A stretch of 22,701 nt of DNA from an uncultured virus (IMG/VR IMGVR_UViG_2061766007_000832) (IMGVR_UViG_2061766007_000832); one strand, 5' to 3'. Positions 7,572 through 22,658 are shown, counted from the first letter of the stretch. Notes: a model not told the origin generated them from the sequence alone. Numbers and translations: made by a program.

Positions 7572-8196
7572 ACCTCCTATGCTGGAACGTTTCTATTGGC
7601 ACTATGTTTCCTTCGCACTCGCTTGGAATGGATCCGTAGAACAGAATTGTCTCCGGCTCCAATACTTCAAGCATCTTGTCATACCCACGCATGAACAATA
7701 CCTTGTCCTCTTTGCGTTTCATCATGCCGACACTGCTGATCGCAACTGTTGAACGATACGGTTCTCCGTCAAAGCACCAGCGATAACTGTTCTCGTCTGT
7801 CCAGGTCACCGTTGGATATACCCTGCAACCTATTGACTGCATCCATGCACCGAGCAGATGCTTGCGGTAGTGATTCCATATCTGCACCATAAAGGGCCAG
7901 TCAATATAAGGTGAAAAGTCCGGAGACAGTACAGCATTGAACTGTTTCAGCATGTCAGCGTACTTCTCTTTGTTATTCCACAACCGCTCAAAGTGGTAGT
8001 CATGGATAAAAAAATGTACGCCTTTCTCGTTTCGCTTGTTCCAGCTGGACCCTGCTTCATTGAACGGAATGTATTCTGCCGGCACATATGGTTCCGGTTT
8101 AATGAACGGAATCTGAAACTCGCCTTCAACGTATTCAGGAATAAAGTCTACGTTGTTGGCGAACTGTTCCATGGCGTACTGTCTGCGGTCACTCAT
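7549..8196 (-). CDS. DUF4417 domain protein
   Basis: GVHFFIHDYHFERLW, VLSPDFSPYID, WNHYR, WCFDGEP, VAISSVG and ILFYG motifs. Confidence 0.85.
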   Translation of the reverse strand: MSDRRQYAMEQFANNVDFIPEYVEGEFQIPFIKPEPYVPAEYIPFNEAGSSWNKRNEKGVHFFIHDYHFERLWNNKEKYADMLKQFNAVLSPDFSPYIDWPFMVQIWNHYRKHLLGAWMQSIGCRVYPTVTWTDENSYRWCFDGEPYRSTVAISSVGMMKRKEDKVLFMRGYDKMLEVLEPETILFYGSIPSECEGNIVPIETFQHRRYDRHGKE

Positions 8197-9100
8197 TGCG
8201 TTTTAACTCCTCTGCGATTCTTCCTAATACGTCAGCTGCGCACGGTAATGCAATACCGTTTCCCCACATTTTATATTGTGCTGAATCGGAGCCATTTACT
8301 CCGTCACACCACCAGTCTGGGAACCCCTGAAGGCGGGCACACTCGACCGGCAAGAGACGGCGTAATACATATTTGCGTTGTTTTACTTCCATGCATGCTC
8401 CCCCTGTTTTTTCGGGTACATAGTTGCCAGTGGATCCCCGAATTTCTTGAAACGAATGTAATGCTTGTTGCAGTAAGTCAAGCCTTTTAGCGGAGCACCA
8501 CAAATCGAGCAGGTTCCCTTCCTCCTGTGAATTAGATTGTGGCAACTTCTGCATAGTCTCTGAAGATTTTCCGGTGCATTGTTCTGAGGGTTGTGATCGA
8601 TATGATGCACATCCGTCTTTCCTGCTTTCCCGCAAATCTCGCAACAGCCTTTTTCCTTCAATGCTCTTGCATACTTGTGAGTAACAGTCCAACTCGTCCC
8701 TGTTTTCGGTTTGCTTCTGTAATCCGCTTTCAGGCATTCCTTGCTGCAATATACACGTCTGTTGTACCAATTCCAACATTCCAATTCCCCATTGCTGTAC
8801 CGCTTTCTCTCCATAGGTTTCCCACAGTATTTGCAATATCGGATCTCGTGTGGCTGATATTTCATTTGCGTCCTCCTGAACGACATCAGTAAAATCTTTA
8901 TAATCACGATTTTTCAATGCGCTTGATACCCCCCCCTCAGAAATTCGGAGTGGNNNNNNNNNNNNNNNNNNNNNNNNNNNNNNNNNNNNNNNATCTCTCC
9001 TTATCACCGGAAGCATATCGTTGAATGCATCCTGTCCTGTGTAGCTCCCCGGATGGCTGTTCGCACATAAGGCTCCGGTTCTCGTTGGATATACTTTCAT
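8189..9100 (-). CDS. C5-cytosine methyltransferase, distal target-recognition modules plus C-terminal motifs IX-X (the C-terminal part may initiate separately at ATG 8392)
   Basis: RRLLPVECARLQGFPD (motif IX) and QYKMWGNGIALP (motif X); modules TGALCANSHPG and SALKNRDYKD. A 39-N gap at 8954-8992 makes frame continuity uncertain. Confidence 0.75.
   Translation of the reverse strand: MKVYPTRTGALCANSHPGSYTGQDAFNDMLPVIRRDXXXXXXXXXXXXXPLRISEGGVSSALKNRDYKDFTDVVQEDANEISATRDPILQILWETYGEKAVQQWGIGMLELVQQTCILQQGMPESGLQKQTENRDELDCYSQVCKSIEGKRLLRDLRESRKDGCASYRSQPSEQCTGKSSETMQKLPQSNSQEEGNLLDLWCSAKRLDLLQQALHSFQEIRGSTGNYVPEKTGGACMEVKQRKYVLRRLLPVECARLQGFPDWWCDGVNGSDSAQYKMWGNGIALPCAADVLGRIAEELKRNE
8383..8865 (-). 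CDS. HNH endonuclease nested in the MTase reading frame
   Basis: CAGGAGG RBS then ATG 8865; CEICG..DVHHIDHNPQNNAPENLQRLCRSCHNLIH plus extra Cys clusters. Confidence 0.9.
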   Translation of the reverse strand: MKYQPHEIRYCKYCGKPMERKRYSNGELECWNWYNRRVYCSKECLKADYRSKPKTGTSWTVTHKYARALKEKGCCEICGKAGKTDVHHIDHNPQNNAPENLQRLCRSCHNLIHRRKGTCSICGAPLKGLTYCNKHYIRFKKFGDPLATMYPKKQGEHAWK

Positions 9101-9648
9101 AAATCACGTATCCTCTGCCCCCCCCTTGGCCAGCGTACAGTGTCATCCATGCACCATCAGCGGTGTATATCTGTCTGCTCTGTACATCCCACGGTGTCAT
9201 GCAATTCGTTTTTTTCATCGTTACTCCTTATCAGTACTAACGGTACGTTGCCCCCCCCTGTACCCATGTGAGCTTCCATCGTAGGAAATATGTCCAAAGG
9301 CTGGTAACTGTGCCGCCTACTGTGATCTATGACAACTACTTCATAGCAGACGGCGTGGTGGTCAATCGTGTTCAATGTGTACGATGCCCCCCCTCACTCC
9401 ATCCGCAGCCGTTGCAGCCATCGGTGTCGCATCGGTCTATGCCGTTGGCTTGCAGACATATAACCTTCTTTTCTTCAAGTATCAATGCTGCATCGCCCCC
9501 CCACCATAGTGATAACCAAGTGTCAGCGTTGCGCTTTTATCGTCCTCTGTGTATTCAGTGCAATTCGCCGTCTTTGGTCTGAAACAGGCAACAGGAATTA
9601 CCACATAATTCCTTGAGTCATTGCTCAATGTATGGCACACCCCCCCCC
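8929..9648 (-). repeat. Six poly-G tracts (G9, G7, G7, G8, G8, G8)
   Basis: Plus-strand C runs at 9640-9648, 9496-9502, 9387-9393, 9251-9258, 9118-9125 and 8929-8936. Confidence 0.95.
8937..9218 (-). CDS. MTase target-recognition module as a separate ORF (3' end uncertain because of the gap)
   Basis: AAGGAG RBS; MTPWDVQSRQIY...WMTLYAGQGGGRGYV. Confidence 0.6.
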   Translation of the reverse strand: MKKTNCMTPWDVQSRQIYTADGAWMTLYAGQGGGRGYVIYESISNENRSLMCEQPSGELHRTGCIQRYASGDKERXXXXXXXXXXXXXXTPNF

Positions 9649-9722
9649 ACCGGATTTGAATAGTTCAGCGGTGAAGTGATTGAATCTCCACGGAAGCAAG
9701 TTGGTTTTACTCTGTCATCCAT
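9157..9722 (-). CDS. MTase target-recognition array (4 modules), frameshifted at three poly-G tracts; 188 aa if all tracts are G8
   Basis: Hand translation: ITSPLNYSNP-[G9]-CHTL; SATLTLGYHYG-[G7]-DAALIL; CLQANGIDR..GWSE-[G7]-SYTLNTIDHHAV; FPTMEAHMGT-[G8]-NVPLV. As given, it stops after 34 aa at 9618. Confidence 0.7.
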
Positions 9723-10435
9723 CTGAACCAACCACTTCCATCAGGGCATCCTGCAACATACTTGGCAGCGTTTTCCCTCGCTTTTCTGCTCTCCGCAGGA
9801 TTCCAGCACACGCTTTCTGACTTAAAGAGTATTTCTCCGGCACGTTCGCTTGCAAAATCTGCGATAAGGTAGATTCTCTTACGACGCTGGGGCACTCCCC
9901 AGTATTGAGCATCGTAGAGTCTCCAGGCAATGCTGAAACCGTTTCCCACAATGGTTCCTGAGTGAGACCACCTGCCATGTGGAGGTTTAGGTACAAGAAT
10001 GTCGGATCCTGCTGCTTCACAGAAAGCTTGCAGGACTGCCCTGAAGTCTTCCCCTTTGTTTGAGCTGAATGCTCCTGGGACGTTTTCCCAGACAGCAAAT
10101 CGAGGATACTTATTTGCTGATACCCCTCGCATTTCTCTGATAATTCTAATTGCTTCAAAGAACAAACTGCTCCTTTCTCCGTCATGTAGTCCCGCCTGTT
10201 TCCCAGCGACTGAAAGGTCCTGACATGGGCTGCCGAATGTGATGATGTCAACAGGTTCAATGTCGGCACCGTTTATATCTGTCACGCTTCCAAGATGTTT
10301 CATGTTCGGGAAGCGTTGCGTTGTTACAGCTATTGGAAATGGTTCAATCTCGCTTGCCCATACAGGTTCGATTCCATACATGGCACCGGCAAGAGGAAAA
10401 CCACCGGATCCATCGAAGAGACTTCCGAGTTTCAT
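9707..10435 (-). CDS. C5-cytosine DNA methyltransferase, catalytic N-terminal polypeptide (motifs I-VIII)
   Basis: LFDGSGG, ASEIE, FGSPCQDLS, WENVPG and GVPQRRKRIY motifs; ends before the TRD and motifs IX-X. Confidence 0.95.
   Translation of the reverse strand: MKLGSLFDGSGGFPLAGAMYGIEPVWASEIEPFPIAVTTQRFPNMKHLGSVTDINGADIEPVDIITFGSPCQDLSVAGKQAGLHDGERSSLFFEAIRIIREMRGVSANKYPRFAVWENVPGAFSSNKGEDFRAVLQAFCEAAGSDILVPKPPHGRWSHSGTIVGNGFSIAWRLYDAQYWGVPQRRKRIYLIADFASERAGEILFKSESVCWNPAESRKARENAAKYVAGCPDGSGWFRWMTE
9715..10269 (-). CDS. Overlapping-frame MTase accessory polypeptide, M.EcoHK31I-beta-like (start uncertain)
   Basis: Alternative frame inside the MTase gene ending ESTLSQILQANVPEKYSLSQKACAGILRRAEKRGKTLP, resembling the EcoHK31I beta subunit. 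Confidence 0.7.
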   Translation of the reverse strand: MPTLNLLTSSHSAAHVRTFQSLGNRRDYMTEKGAVCSLKQLELSEKCEGYQQISILDLLSGKTSQEHSAQTKGKTSGQSCKLSVKQQDPTFLYLNLHMAGGLTQEPLWETVSALPGDSTMLNTGECPSVVRESTLSQILQANVPEKYSLSQKACAGILRRAEKRGKTLPSMLQDALMEVVGSDG

Positions 10436-12337: not shown

Positions 12338-12897
12338 TGTTTCACCTCCACACAGTCCATCATACAGTCTTCAGCAAATTGTCTTGCGGTCGGTAGTAAT
12401 TCCACAGCCTTGCAGAAGTCCTCATCCCACTCACCGTATGTCCTCGGTCTCTTCTCGTCACGTATATCCTCCAGCCGACGAACAATATCGTCAGCCAACA
12501 GGGCCATGTTGAACAGCATACGCTTTACCCAAGCTTCATGCTCGACTGCATTCTTTCGCATTTTAAGGGCGTTTTTAGCTCGTTCGGCTTCAGCTGGGCT
12601 GATCTTCGTTTCAAGGTCGAGACCGAGACGGAAGGTATCAGAGAACCACTGCAAGCATTGCTTATACGACATATCCGAGTAATAGTTTCTAACTAAAGAA
12701 ATTACATCGCCAGCTGACTTACATACCCAACACATATATCCACGATTTCCGGAATATAATTTCATGTTATACCCATCGCCGTTATGTAATGGGCATTTAC
12801 ATCTACCATGGCGAATGTCCCATCCAAGAGCCTGTCCAACGTCCAGGGCGGACACAGATTGCTTGATGGTATCTGCGAAAAGATTGTACTTATTCAT
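12331..12897 (-). CDS. CHC2 zinc-finger primase-related protein (no TOPRIM domain)
   Basis: CKCPLHNG...YMCWVC..AGDVISLV. Confidence 0.85.
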   Translation of the reverse strand: MNKYNLFADTIKQSVSALDVGQALGWDIRHGRCKCPLHNGDGYNMKLYSGNRGYMCWVCKSAGDVISLVRNYYSDMSYKQCLQWFSDTFRLGLDLETKISPAEAERAKNALKMRKNAVEHEAWVKRMLFNMALLADDIVRRLEDIRDEKRPRTYGEWDEDFCKAVELLPTARQFAEDCMMDCVEVKQC

Positions 12898-13672
12898 ATA
12901 TCTGTTGCCATCTCATTCCATAGGATACACGATTTAATCGAGCAGCTTTTGCAATACAGCTTACGTTATATCCATATTTTTCAGCAGCAGCTGATGCACT
13001 CGGAAAAACTTCTCCTGTATCAACGCAACGAATTGGGATGCCATGTCCACCATTTCTGTGAGTTCTTTTTTTTAATGCATCAACAATATTCATTCCTTTG
13101 CTTACTCTTGTTTGCACTGTTCCGGGATTCAAACCATATTCTTCTGCCCATTCTGTCATACTTTTTGTTACACCATTGATTGTGAAGAATCTACATCTAC
13201 TTGTATTATTATGTTGCTTTTTCTCTGTAACCCATCTGCAATTGTTTGGTTCATAATTTCCATCATTATTAATTCGGTCTATGGAAAGACCGTCAGCATA
13301 TCCATTTGCAATTGCCCATCTTGCAAAAGGAACATAGTCTTTCCATTCATCACATACAGTAATTCCTCTTCCGCCATAACGACTATAACATTTATGATTT
13401 GGGTCATTGCATCGTTTAAGCATACCGTGCCATATATAGCGTAATCTTTTGATTCTCACATCTACAGGATACTTTTGTGTTTGGTTTTTTACGCATTCAT
13501 CTCGTAAACATCCGCAACTTCTTGTTGCACCTCTCATAAGATCGAAACCTTTTACTATTTTCTCCTTTCCGCATTTACATTTGCATAACCATAACGTTCT
13601 ATAATTTTTGCTTCCTGCATATTGAATTACGGTAAGTCTTCCGAATTGCTTGCCAATCAGTGAAAGCTTCAA
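12890..13672 (-). CDS. Free-standing HNH homing endonuclease with C-terminal NUMOD1/IENR1-like domain
   Basis: FGRLTV, WLCKCKCG, RSCGC, YGGRGITVCDEW, SIDRINNDGNYEPNNCRW, IRCVDTGEVFPS; probable TTG start at 13672; AT-rich. Confidence 0.9.
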   Translation of the reverse strand: MKLSLIGKQFGRLTVIQYAGSKNYRTLWLCKCKCGKEKIVKGFDLMRGATRSCGCLRDECVKNQTQKYPVDVRIKRLRYIWHGMLKRCNDPNHKCYSRYGGRGITVCDEWKDYVPFARWAIANGYADGLSIDRINNDGNYEPNNCRWVTEKKQHNNTSRCRFFTINGVTKSMTEWAEEYGLNPGTVQTRVSKGMNIVDALKKRTHRNGGHGIPIRCVDTGEVFPSASAAAEKYGYNVSCIAKAARLNRVSYGMRWQQIYE

Positions 13673-13673
13673 A

Positions 13674-15074
13674 TCAAACACCTTCCTCCATTTCAGCACC
13701 AACTTTCCGGTATGTTGTCTTCCGTTTCTTAAATATTCCACAACACATACCAATGTTTTCATCCACAAAATCGTACACTACAGGAATTTCTGTTTTGCTT
13801 TCATGCACACGTCGGATTCTTCCAACGCTTTGTTCTACAATTGCAGGGTCTTTTACAGGGGAAGCCATAAACAAACGAGATAGTCTTGGAATGTCAAGTC
13901 CTTCACGGGCGATTTTATACGATCCGAATAGGTACATTTTTCTGCCGACCCGCATGTCTTCCTGTATTTTCGCTCGTTCAGTCTTTGCCTTCTTGCTCTG
14001 CATTTTCCCATCAATATATCCGACCTTCTCTTGCATATCATCCGGGAGCAGTGCAATGATTTCCTTCAGTTGATCAAGCCTGTCTGACAGAATTACGCAA
14101 CTCTGATCTTTTTCTTCGATGATCTTGCTTGCAATCAACTTGTTTCTTGTTCTGTCTGTGACAATATGCTTTAGCAGTTTTGTGTAATTAATTGTACCGT
14201 CAGGGTTCTGGCACTCATCAGTAATTTCTGTTTCAGTCAGAATCTGACGAATCTTTACCCCTGTTACTCTGCTCTGTACTTCTTCTGGAGGAATCTTATA
14301 TGCCACATTGCCAATTAATGCAAATGTTGCCTTGATCAGGCCGTCAGACCTATAATCTGTTGCAGTTAATCCAATCTTTGATCGAGCTGCAAGATGGTTC
14401 AGCACCTTCTCATACATGGTAAATGAATCATCTGACACGCATACGTTGTGTGCTTCATCAACTATGATTACATCCCAATAATCACGGAACTGTGTAAGCT
14501 CAACCTTGCACATTGTCTGGACAGTAGCGAACGTAACACCTACACCTACATTTATCCGGCCTTCTGTAATTGTACCGAACAGGCTTGGATCGATGAACTC
14601 TCCAGCAACATCCATGCTTTGTTTTATAAGGTCATGCTTGTTACACAACCACAACGTACGTCTCCGGAGTGCTTTTATCAATGCGATACCGCAGCGTGTC
14701 TTGCCGGCACCACACGGGGCCTTCAGTATTCCGTACTTGGCTTCGACCATTCCGTTTACGGCAGCTTGTTGGTAGTCAAACAACTCCATATCCTTATCGC
14801 CGTAATCAATCACCGTATCCTGCCGGAAGTCACAGAAGATTCCGGTGCCTTTCAGCATGGGCATCAGTTCCCTGATCACCCCGAACGGCAGGATCAGTGT
14901 GTTGCCGTTCCACTCATACATCCGGATGGTTCTCGGAGTCTTTCCAACCCAGAATCCCATGCGTACTTTCTTCTCATATACAGGGTTTGGGAAGTCCAGG
15001 TTCTCTTTCGCCCATGATATGATTTCCTTTGTCGGTTCATTTATGTAAATGCGATTCGCAATTGTTGTATTCAT
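13674..15074 (-). CDS. Superfamily 2 (DEAD/DEAH-like) helicase
   Basis: APCGAGKT, IVDEAH, GLTAT, EGLDIP and QSVGRIRR motifs. Confidence 0.95.
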   Translation of the reverse strand: MNTTIANRIYINEPTKEIISWAKENLDFPNPVYEKKVRMGFWVGKTPRTIRMYEWNGNTLILPFGVIRELMPMLKGTGIFCDFRQDTVIDYGDKDMELFDYQQAAVNGMVEAKYGILKAPCGAGKTRCGIALIKALRRRTLWLCNKHDLIKQSMDVAGEFIDPSLFGTITEGRINVGVGVTFATVQTMCKVELTQFRDYWDVIIVDEAHNVCVSDDSFTMYEKVLNHLAARSKIGLTATDYRSDGLIKATFALIGNVAYKIPPEEVQSRVTGVKIRQILTETEITDECQNPDGTINYTKLLKHIVTDRTRNKLIASKIIEEKDQSCVILSDRLDQLKEIIALLPDDMQEKVGYIDGKMQSKKAKTERAKIQEDMRVGRKMYLFGSYKIAREGLDIPRLSRLFMASPVKDPAIVEQSVGRIRRVHESKTEIPVVYDFVDENIGMCCGIFKKRKTTYRKVGAEMEEGV

Positions 15075-15752: not shown

Positions 15753-16298
15753 TTAAATGACAGTGTACTTTTCTCCACCAATTGATGATACTTTCCTGTG
15801 TTTTCGCTTGCAATTTGAAATATAACTTGAACTTCTCCCAATACTTCTTGATGCTAATGCTTGTGACATGAAGGATGTTTTAGTGCCATTTTCATCAATA
15901 AGAATGCATGGTTTTTGGCAATGGAACAGCCCTGTTTTAAATCCATGTTGAATGTTTTCTTTTAAACTTATCCATTCAAGATTATTTGAATGATTGTTTA
16001 AATAATTACCATCTATATGGTTAACTGTAAGACCATCTCTATACCCATCACACCACGTAATAGCTATAAGTCTCGATACAAGCCAAGTTTTGTGACTGTT
16101 TCCTTTCCACAATTCAACACGAAAATCAGTTCTGCCCTTGCTGCTCTTGTAACATTTTTGTTTCATTATTCTTTGCTTCCACACACGTTTCTCGAATCTT
16201 TTACTGCTTGTTGTTTTACCTTCGCAAGTCCTGATTCGTCCATGTGTTGAAGCTTGATACAAACCTTCATATCCAGGGATGTCTTTCCACTGTTCCAT
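15753..16298 (-). CDS. NUMOD4-HNH homing endonuclease
   Basis: EQWKDIPGYEGLYQAS..GRIR; VNHIDGNYLNNHSNNLEW...ENIQH; AT-rich. Confidence 0.92.
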   Translation of the reverse strand: MEQWKDIPGYEGLYQASTHGRIRTCEGKTTSSKRFEKRVWKQRIMKQKCYKSSKGRTDFRVELWKGNSHKTWLVSRLIAITWCDGYRDGLTVNHIDGNYLNNHSNNLEWISLKENIQHGFKTGLFHCQKPCILIDENGTKTSFMSQALASRSIGRSSSYISNCKRKHRKVSSIGGEKYTVI

Positions 16299-19853: not shown

Positions 19854-20399
19854 TCATTTTGCGTCCGGTCCGATGCGGTTCCGCACCTGATTCCGGCAGT
19901 ATCTTTTATCACGCCACTGTTTACGTTTATGGTCTTCGCTGATCGTAGTCACCGTTTGGTCACGTACTGCCTGGTTTTCCTGATCAAGCTTTTTTCTCCA
20001 TTTGGCATATCTTAAACANNNNNNNNNNNNNNNNNNNNNNNNNNNNNNNNNNNNNNNNNNNNNNNNNNNNNNNNNNNNNNNNNNNNNNNNNNNNNNNNNN
20101 NNNNNNNNNNNNNNNNNNNNNNNNNNNNGTAATAAACCTTAACGGTTGCCAGTGGTTTCAGCCAGCGCAATCGGTCACCGTTCACACGATTCCGGGCAGC
20201 GAGNNNNNNNNNNCCACTGTTTCCGCTTGTGGTCTTCGCTGATCGTGGTTACGGTTTTATCACGTACCGCCTGGTTTTCCTGATCAAGCTTTTTTCTCCA
20301 TTTGGCATATCTTAAACAAGTACTGTGACATGTGTCGGTTCGTTCAGAACACACCCTCGTGCATGGGCAATCCTTTCTCATTTTCCCATTAAACGACAT
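19854..20399 (-). CDS. Small Cys-rich phage protein (~81 aa), split by an assembly duplication
   Basis: MSFNGKMRKDCPCTRVC...CHSTC...KRKQW; the true C-terminus RDKRYCRNQVRNRIGPDAK* is in the duplicate copy ending at 19854. Confidence 0.65.
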
Positions 20400-21603: not shown

Positions 21604-21888
21604 TCCTGCTCACCGTCCATTCGCCTACCATCAGCACAGAAGAATGTTTCTTCCTTTGGTCTTGGTGATTCGTTTTTNNNNNNNNNNACACCGGATGATC
21701 TCGTTATCTCTGTCCGCATATCCTTTTTCATACTGTTCTCTGTCATATGCCAATGCTTTCAACAGTTCAGCCTTATTGACATTTACACCAACCTTTTGAA
21801 CAGCTTTTATGATTTCCTTGCCCATATGTATTTCACTTGTTATTCGCATCTGGCTTGCAATTAGTTCAACCGGACTTTCATAGCACAC
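21600..21888 (-). CDS. Hypothetical phage protein spanning a gap
   Basis: ...ELLKALAYDREQYEKGY...EIIRC [gap 21678-21687], resuming in another frame as ...FFCADGRRMDGEQE*. Confidence 0.65.
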
Positions 21889-22241: not shown

Positions 22242-22658
22242 GTCCGTGTAACCATGTCCTGTGGACGGCGATACGTAACGGTTGCATGGTTGACAGTCAT
22301 TTTTCCATGTTCATATCCTGCCATGTTTTTGCCGTCCTGTTCGCTAATGATCGGTCGTGGCTGTTCCGGAAAGTTCTTCTTGTACTCTGCCATAAGCATT
22401 TCCACCCGGCGCTCATTGGTGAGGTATGGTGCATTGAGGGTCAGATACGTGATGGATTCCTCAAAGGTGTCTGTCTTCTCGCCGATCAGTTTGTAGATTC
22501 CATCGGCGACGTTCATGTAGTTCGTCCAGAAAGGGTTGTTCGGATNNNNNNNNNNACGGATTCTCCATATACCCACATTCAGCCATCGCATCGTGCAGTT
22601 TCAGCATTTCCCTGCAAGCATCTACGTCACGCAGTAATGCGTCTCTAATGTTCTGCAT
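22238..22658 (-). CDS. Hypothetical phage protein spanning a gap (~135 aa)
   Basis: AAGGAG RBS; MQNIRD...MENP joins PNNPFW... if the CGGAT flanking the 22546-22555 gap is an overlap. Confidence 0.65.

Follow-up and report, generated by a model that had tools for sequence, protein, structure and literature searches.

Poly-G tracts as candidate contingency switches in the split C5 methyltransferase locus of an uncultured phage

The sequence examined here is a 22,701-nucleotide stretch of an uncultured virus, IMGVR_UViG_2061766007_000832 (the window; all coordinates refer to the whole of it), which carries a C5 cytosine methyltransferase locus on its minus strand (10435-8189). Six G runs on the coding (minus) strand of this locus, of 9, 7, 7, 8, 8, and 8 bases, fall within 720 bases, and the longest G or C run elsewhere in the window is 5 (two C5 runs on the plus strand, where G runs reach at most 4). 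A preliminary interpretation made from the sequence alone (the sequence-only reading) had pointed to these six runs and had noticed none besides them in the 22.7 kb that reached 7 G or C, which our counts bear out. Each of the six tracts is a repeat that lies within a reading frame and sets that frame by its length, as in a contingency locus.

Seven T-L type motifs are present in the locus, each marking a putative recognition module. Tract 1 (G9, 9640-9648) is out of frame and upstream of the CHTL motif. Tract 2 (G7, 9496-9502), also out of frame, codes for the glycines that follow SATLTLGYHY, and tract 3 (G7, 9387-9393), the third that is out of frame, is upstream of SYTLNTID. The remaining three are in frame: tract 4 (G8, 9251-9258) follows FPTM, where the peptide MGTGGGN is spelled GGG GGG GGC over its glycines; tract 5 (G8, 9118-9125) follows WMTL and encodes AGQGGGRG; and tract 6 (G8, 8929-8936) is upstream of SSAL, in SEGGVSSALK. 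All six are on the minus strand. Translation places each run in a different module, as the sequence-only reading had it, and the module with the TGAL motif has no G run.

Three-frame translation, a list of open reading frames (ORFs), and family scans (Pfam, PHROGs) resolve the locus into a same-strand operon of pieces, with four cistrons and two nested genes, and not a single gene. ORF1 (9707-10435, 242 amino acids, stop codon TAA at 9709-9707) is the methyltransferase core; it matches PF00145 over profile positions 1-132 (E = 7.6e-35) and phrog_116, DNA methyltransferase (E = 1.7e-62), its translation displays the N-terminal catalytic motifs I-VIII, and it contains no long G run. ORF2 (9157-9722) holds the module array CHTL, SATL, SYTL, and FPTM together with four tracts, and it begins (ATG 9722) within the final codons of both ORF1 and a nested +1-frame ORF, 13 bases ahead of the ORF1 stop codon. 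ORF3 (8937-9218) is a small cistron with the WMTL module and one tract; it has its own AAGGAG ribosome-binding site and ATG at 9218, with an A7 run (9215-9209) at its start, and its 3' part overlaps ORF4 in a different frame and enters masked bases. ORF4 (8189-9100, ATG 9100) begins with MKVYP and is the C-terminal part of the enzyme, with the TGAL and SSAL modules, one tract, and a match to PF00145 over profile positions 187-322 (E = 4.3e-10) that includes motifs IX and X. A block of 39 masked bases (N, 8954-8992) inside ORF4 and the ORF3 tail hides 13 ORF4 codons and the end of ORF3.

Apart from the tracts, the coding frame also changes near 9722-9707, 9218, and 9100, each time with an ATG in the new frame; the sequence-only reading had passed over these changes. 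The MKVYP start of ORF4 is conserved in three related loci, L003, L005, and L163 (L-numbers denote the loci of relatives), and has a variant form in L007 and L052. Both the ORF1/ORF2 split and the ORF4 start are repeated in L163, and comparable frame hand-overs and start codons are found in L003, L004, L005, L007, and L052. Because of these start codons and their recurrence in relatives, we regard the three additional frame changes as gene junctions and not as damage.

At the first of these junctions, the ORF2 start (ATG 9722), the stop of the nested +1 ORF (TGA 9717-9715), and the ORF1 stop (TAA 9709-9707) are packed into 16 bases (9707-9722). This hand-over among three frames suggests coupled translation.

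Motifs I-VIII (ORF1) and IX-X (ORF4) are thus predicted to reside on separate polypeptides, as in split C5 methyltransferases, and the same division can be read in L163, L003, L005, and L007. A PDB sequence search aligned the L163 homologue of ORF4 to residues 268-319 of M.HaeIII, the alignment being confined to motifs IX-X. In more distant homologues the enzyme is one continuous chain (382-768 residues) that contains many T-L modules. A Pfam scan of the module pieces found no family.

Naturally split two-piece C5 methyltransferases are represented by M.AquI and M.EcoHK31I (PMC3404938 and PMC2836561). As in those enzymes, the core and C-terminal parts of the present locus occupy separate polypeptides, and as in M.EcoHK31I, where the larger gene also encodes a subunit in a second frame, a +1-frame ORF lies within ORF1. 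The locus differs from both in its number of pieces, four or more cistrons in addition to the nested ORF, and module-only polypeptides are not known from M.AquI or M.EcoHK31I.

The nested ORF runs in the +1 frame across motifs VI-VIII on the minus strand (9715-10269, 184 codons from GTG to stop) and ends in a conserved tail (...VPEKYSLSQKACAGILRRAEKRGKTLP...). An ORF of this kind (about 135-185 codons) is open in all relatives translated in three frames, its tail motif occurs in 113 of 244 sequences (96 unique), and it has matches to more than 1,000 called proteins. Within the tail (VPEKY..LS.KAC.GILRRA..RGK.LP), the entropy at +1-frame codon positions 1, 2, and 3 is 0.87, 0.84, and 1.41; as the third position of this frame varies most, selection acts on the +1 frame there. 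By analogy, the nested ORF probably encodes a subunit like the M.EcoHK31I beta subunit.

G tracts of another placement touch the same region in relatives. In L005, L009, L013, L014, L025, L041, L052, and L080 a G7-G9 tract occurs in the catalytic N-terminal domain, near residues 133-166 (e.g., KGKW[G7]GAG), and a shift at this tract would lead into the frame that the nested ORF uses; the run at this position in the window is no longer than G4.

As assembled, ORF2 reaches a stop after 34 codons, at 9618, and is off at three tracts (the G9 and both G7). With every tract set to 8 it is open for 188 codons from ATG 9722, with no stop apart from those caused by the tract breaks, and the tracts of ORF3 and ORF4 (5 and 6) are in frame in the assembled genotype. 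On these points the sequence-only reading, which had held that the three G8 runs are in frame, that the other three break it, and that G8 throughout yields a 188-codon ORF, was correct. When the lengths of the first three tracts were varied, 27 of the 343 combinations tested left ORF2 open, namely those with all three tracts individually equal to 8 modulo 3, so neighbouring tracts do not compensate for one another. Frame compensation by adjacent tracts, by which one module would be skipped, was considered and rejected because the alternative frames contain stops.

The four serial tracts of ORF2 work together as an AND gate; the most that they could otherwise yield is a set of nested truncations. 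Tract 6 gates motifs IX and X and therefore would switch the whole enzyme. The sequence-only reading had instead proposed that each module has its own slippage switch and that the phage population would carry many methylation patterns; taken in full, this model turns every module on and off independently and lets the population sample every combination of specificities. The presence of a tract next to each of six T-L modules fits this proposal, as does the enrichment of tracts near such motifs among relatives, where a T-L type motif adjoins 148 of 238 tracts, as opposed to 317 of 1,190 control positions. We nevertheless consider it improbable, given that four tracts share ORF2, where any shift meets a stop within a few codons and few length combinations are open, and that a change at tract 6 would affect everything. 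Separate start codons possibly leave some independence, with at most three units (ORF2, ORF3, and ORF4) able to vary on their own. What stands of the proposal is the position of the tracts beside T-L motifs and, in relatives, their different lengths and frequent out-of-frame state at homologous sites; what is not supported in the form proposed is their independence. Free combination of six modules is ruled out by the layout, which leaves on/off switching of the whole enzyme, on/off switching of ORF2 and of ORF3, and nested truncations of ORF2.

Codon use speaks against a chance origin of the tracts. In the other ORFs of the window (n = 22; 4,722 codons), GGG accounts for 38 of 298 glycine codons (13%), none of 10 Gly-Gly pairs is written GGG-GGG, and the sole Gly-Gly-Gly is GGA GGT GGC. 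As all six sites are written with GGG runs, drift in codon use does not explain them. The sequence-only reading had inferred from mixed-codon glycine runs elsewhere that the homopolymers look selected; we would say that they look either selected for or hypermutable, and not accidental.

An error of sequencing or assembly in the tract lengths was weighed against public data. Twenty public runs that contain the stretch are bovine gut metagenomes, available as contigs, which cannot reveal minority tract lengths, and the contigs of four runs were aligned to the window. In two runs of the probable source sample, contigs (depth 10.6 in one, 14.1 in the other) follow the window over 8993-9880, neither showing any difference or gap, and this agreement makes the lengths of five tracts a reproducible consensus. 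Homopolymers are error-prone and a depth of 10-14 is low, which gives an artefact some footing. We consider it extremely improbable, since the contigs from two runs are identical, tracts occur in many independent assemblies (L024 and L026, from different records, are identical including their tracts), and such an error may alter the length of a run but cannot create runs. The tracts are not a product of chance and probably not of assembly error.

Tracts of the same kind are common among relatives, whose methylase genes, from gut and rumen phages, carry G7-G11 runs at similar sites. Of the IMG/VR loci retrieved with the core protein, 16 of 80 contain one or more G runs that reach 7, and these are mostly the closest loci; among loci retrieved with a module peptide, 104 of 160 have a G or C run of at least 7, nearly all of them coding-strand G, with up to ten tracts in one locus (L086). 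Tract density was calculated for the 94 unique loci in which both gene ends could be placed, the other unique loci being left out because one end was not found. In these 94 loci, 54 tracts lie inside the gene (0.36 per kb) and 13 outside (0.028 per kb), and none has a C run of 7 or more inside the gene. Tract-bearing loci include human gut metagenome records (L187, L212, and L226), a metagenome-assembled genome (MAG) from sheep rectum (L247), and the present bovine sample.

Tract length varies at homologous sites. The site preceding SSALK (tract 6) is G10 in L163, G8 in L009, G7 in L007, and G8 in the window, and an ARGNG site is G6, G8, G9, and G9 across loci. Among nine related loci with 74-100% identity, in-gene indels not divisible by 3 are confined to three tracts, and one of the nine is fully open (lengths 8-8-8-9). 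L127 and L132 differ at 0 positions by mismatch and by the length of a single tract (G7 versus G8). Near-identical sequences with differing tract length are thus seen among relatives, though not for the array of the window itself.

These comparisons bear on the possibility that the locus is decaying without function, with the tracts as mutation-prone by-products in a dispensable gene that is being lost and the frameshifts permanent. ORF2 carries three frameshifts at once, the locus is split and has been invaded by an HNH endonuclease gene, eight of the nine members of the related group are out of frame, and many homologues lack tracts, all as decay would have it. Neutral loss, however, would not make six GGG-GGG sites where GGG supplies 13% of glycine codons, and the tracts recur at homologous sites despite hundreds of substitutions, without other frameshifts or stops. 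The cistron junctions with start codons that are repeated in relatives, and an HNH insertion that leaves the host frame open, also argue against decay, which we regard as rather unlikely.

The sequence-only reading had expected G runs to persist at homologous sites with variable length, and had taken non-homopolymeric codons in homologues as evidence to the contrary. Both are found, the latter in part. G runs do occur at homologous sites with various lengths, but L163 and distant intact homologues use non-homopolymeric codons. The nearest relative, L163, spells the glycines of MGTGGGN as GGT GGC GGA; as it encodes the same residues with mixed codons, the homopolymer is not required by the protein. 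At the site homologous to tract 3, L014 lacks glycines altogether. We read the non-homopolymeric codons as tract gain and loss, and tracts appear to have been gained and lost at the DNA level without any need on the part of the protein.

The module array itself is a mosaic. Two runs from other studies (X3 and X4) contain relatives whose flanks are similar and which have other sequence between approximately 9067-9104 and 9711-9799, and in X4 a segment of 752 letters replaces the array between 9104 and 9799. At the DNA level, L163 and the window have only single modules in common.

A further possibility is recoding, in which the RNA polymerase slips or the ribosome shifts frame at the G runs, an in-frame product is made at any DNA length, and the apparent frameshifts are not off states. 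An out-of-frame state in about half of the relatives' tracts, and in most members of one group, would then be tolerable. The known cases of rescue by slippage are mainly at A or T runs. Nothing in the analysis supports recoding at this locus, and three serial rescues in ORF2 would leave very little product, so we judge it quite improbable.

We consider it reasonably probable, from the sequence comparisons, that the six runs are slippage-prone contingency tracts located where a phage C5 methyltransferase locus encodes its recognition modules, with slippage taking place in the phage population. Slipped-strand mispairing during replication would add or remove one G, and the resulting shift of frame would end translation of the tract-bearing cistron within a few codons. 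Tract 6 would set whether the enzyme is made, and the other tracts may set which module-bearing pieces accompany it. These separate pieces would assemble into active enzyme, and the methylated motifs would change with the pieces present. A population mixed for tract states could then serve as a bet-hedge between escape from host restriction and avoidance of methyl-dependent defences.

Several observations weigh against this interpretation of the tracts as contingency switches. Three simultaneous off tracts in ORF2 resemble decay as much as a switch. We know of no precedent for module-only polypeptides that work apart from a core, and in an AlphaFold2 model of the fused homologue L014 (from an 81-row alignment) the core is confident and the module array (approximately residues 216-420) has a predicted local distance difference test score (pLDDT) below 50. 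A search of IMG/VR and a metagenome collection with the module peptide encoded at 9375-9157 found no near-identical allele of the array, the best match being L163, at 80% over residues 12-55 of 72. Among the relatives' tracts, 76 are out of frame and 73 in frame, after 89 of 238 were dropped as ambiguous, and A runs scored in this way yield 24 out of 65; as the control on A and T runs shows that gene junctions are counted too, this tally is blunt and carries little weight. Of 80 homologous loci in bacterial genomes, 3 have tracts, all of them in MAGs and none in a cultured isolate. Finally, the evidence consists of contigs, unbroken through five tracts at a depth of 10-14, and heterogeneity within a population, which defines phase variation, is outside what contigs show.

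A more elaborate form of the contingency interpretation, which we hold to be doubtful, is a multi-piece modular enzyme in which core, nested beta-like, and C-terminal subunits are joined by free-standing module polypeptides that dock on the core. Poly-G would gate each module cistron, and the ORF2 tracts would determine the modules translated before the first out-of-frame tract. The outcome would be a graded methylome, heritable yet reversible and hierarchical instead of freely combinatorial, widespread in gut and rumen phages.

Multispecific C5 methyltransferases with one core and tandem recognition modules between motifs VIII and IX were reportedly described by the Trautner laboratory in the Bacillus phages SPR, phi3T, and rho11s. 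The present locus is similar in combining a single core with several putative tandem modules, and differs in having the array split into cistrons with poly-G tracts.

Poly-G tracts have precedents in other phages. Hypermutable polyG tracts in receptor-binding genes of Campylobacter Fletchervirus (Sorensen et al. 2021) and, in Bordetella phage BPP-1, a polyG within a methylase gene (Liu et al. 2004) are both cited in bioRxiv 10.1101/2025.10.21.683753 and PMC12823448. As far as those citing accounts describe them, the features in common are tracts of approximately 7-11 G in phage coding sequence, variable length, a shift of frame, and a proposed role in diversity against host defences. In contrast to what the same accounts report for the Campylobacter phages and BPP-1, the tracts described here number up to six in one methyltransferase locus of the window (ten in L086), stand beside module motifs, belong to phages of gut and rumen Clostridia-type hosts, and are known from sequence alone.

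Among bacteria, PMC3411764 describes the Helicobacter pylori C5 enzyme hpyAVIBM as phase-variable through AG repeats, and PMC12707154 describes Type I and Type III phasevarions among bacterial DNA methyltransferases. In these accounts, as here, a simple repeat lies within an ORF and its expansion or contraction truncates the enzyme. The bacterial examples given there are cellular and have one repeat per gene, whereas the present locus is phage-borne and has several tracts, tied to tandem recognition modules. No paper found by a literature search, the scope of which left out most subscription journals, describes arrays of poly-G in recognition modules of C5 methyltransferases from phages.

Phage methyltransferases decide between survival of host restriction and exposure to methyl-dependent defences. 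If the tracts do switch as proposed, many gut and rumen phages would carry built-in, reversible variation of their methylation pattern, with effects on host range and on the use of methylation motifs for matching phages to hosts in metagenomes. Gene calling would be affected as well, because such loci resemble genes that have been disrupted. The contingency loci known so far come mostly from a small number of host-adapted bacteria and of cultured phages, and their range would extend to uncultured phages of Clostridia-type hosts.

The second nested gene of the locus occupies an insertion of 491 bases in ORF4 (8380-8870, minus strand) that is absent from L163, its limits being those given by blastn against that locus. 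The insertion holds a complete HNH endonuclease gene (PF01844; phrog_1271, E = 7e-17) in the +1 frame of ORF4, with an AGGAGG ribosome-binding site, ATG at 8865, and a stop at 8383, and the ORF4 frame is uninterrupted across it. The methylase gene thus contains a complete HNH ORF in a shifted frame and is itself free of stops across it. An identical layout is found in a cultured phage, Staphylococcus phage CUB-EPI_14, within an annotated 602-amino-acid methyltransferase coding sequence, and its HNH is 50.7% identical over 92% of the query. The layout was also noted in L243 (2501-2944). A hidden, out-of-frame HNH (the ShiLan-type element) is described for mycobacteriophage methylases in PMC11855218, and the insertion resembles that element in layout.

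The window as a whole is a phage replication and recombination module with its genes on the minus strand, in which PHROGs matches include an exonuclease, a single-strand-binding protein, a helicase, a primase/helicase, and three HNH endonucleases. Further masked stretches of N lie at 20019-20128, 20204-20213, 21678-21687, and 22546-22555. Besides the HNH inserted in ORF4, two free-standing HNH endonuclease genes are present on the minus strand, at 12890-13768 (phrog_374, E = 1e-70) and 15753-16298 (phrog_59, E = 2e-35), and the region is therefore rich in homing-type nucleases.

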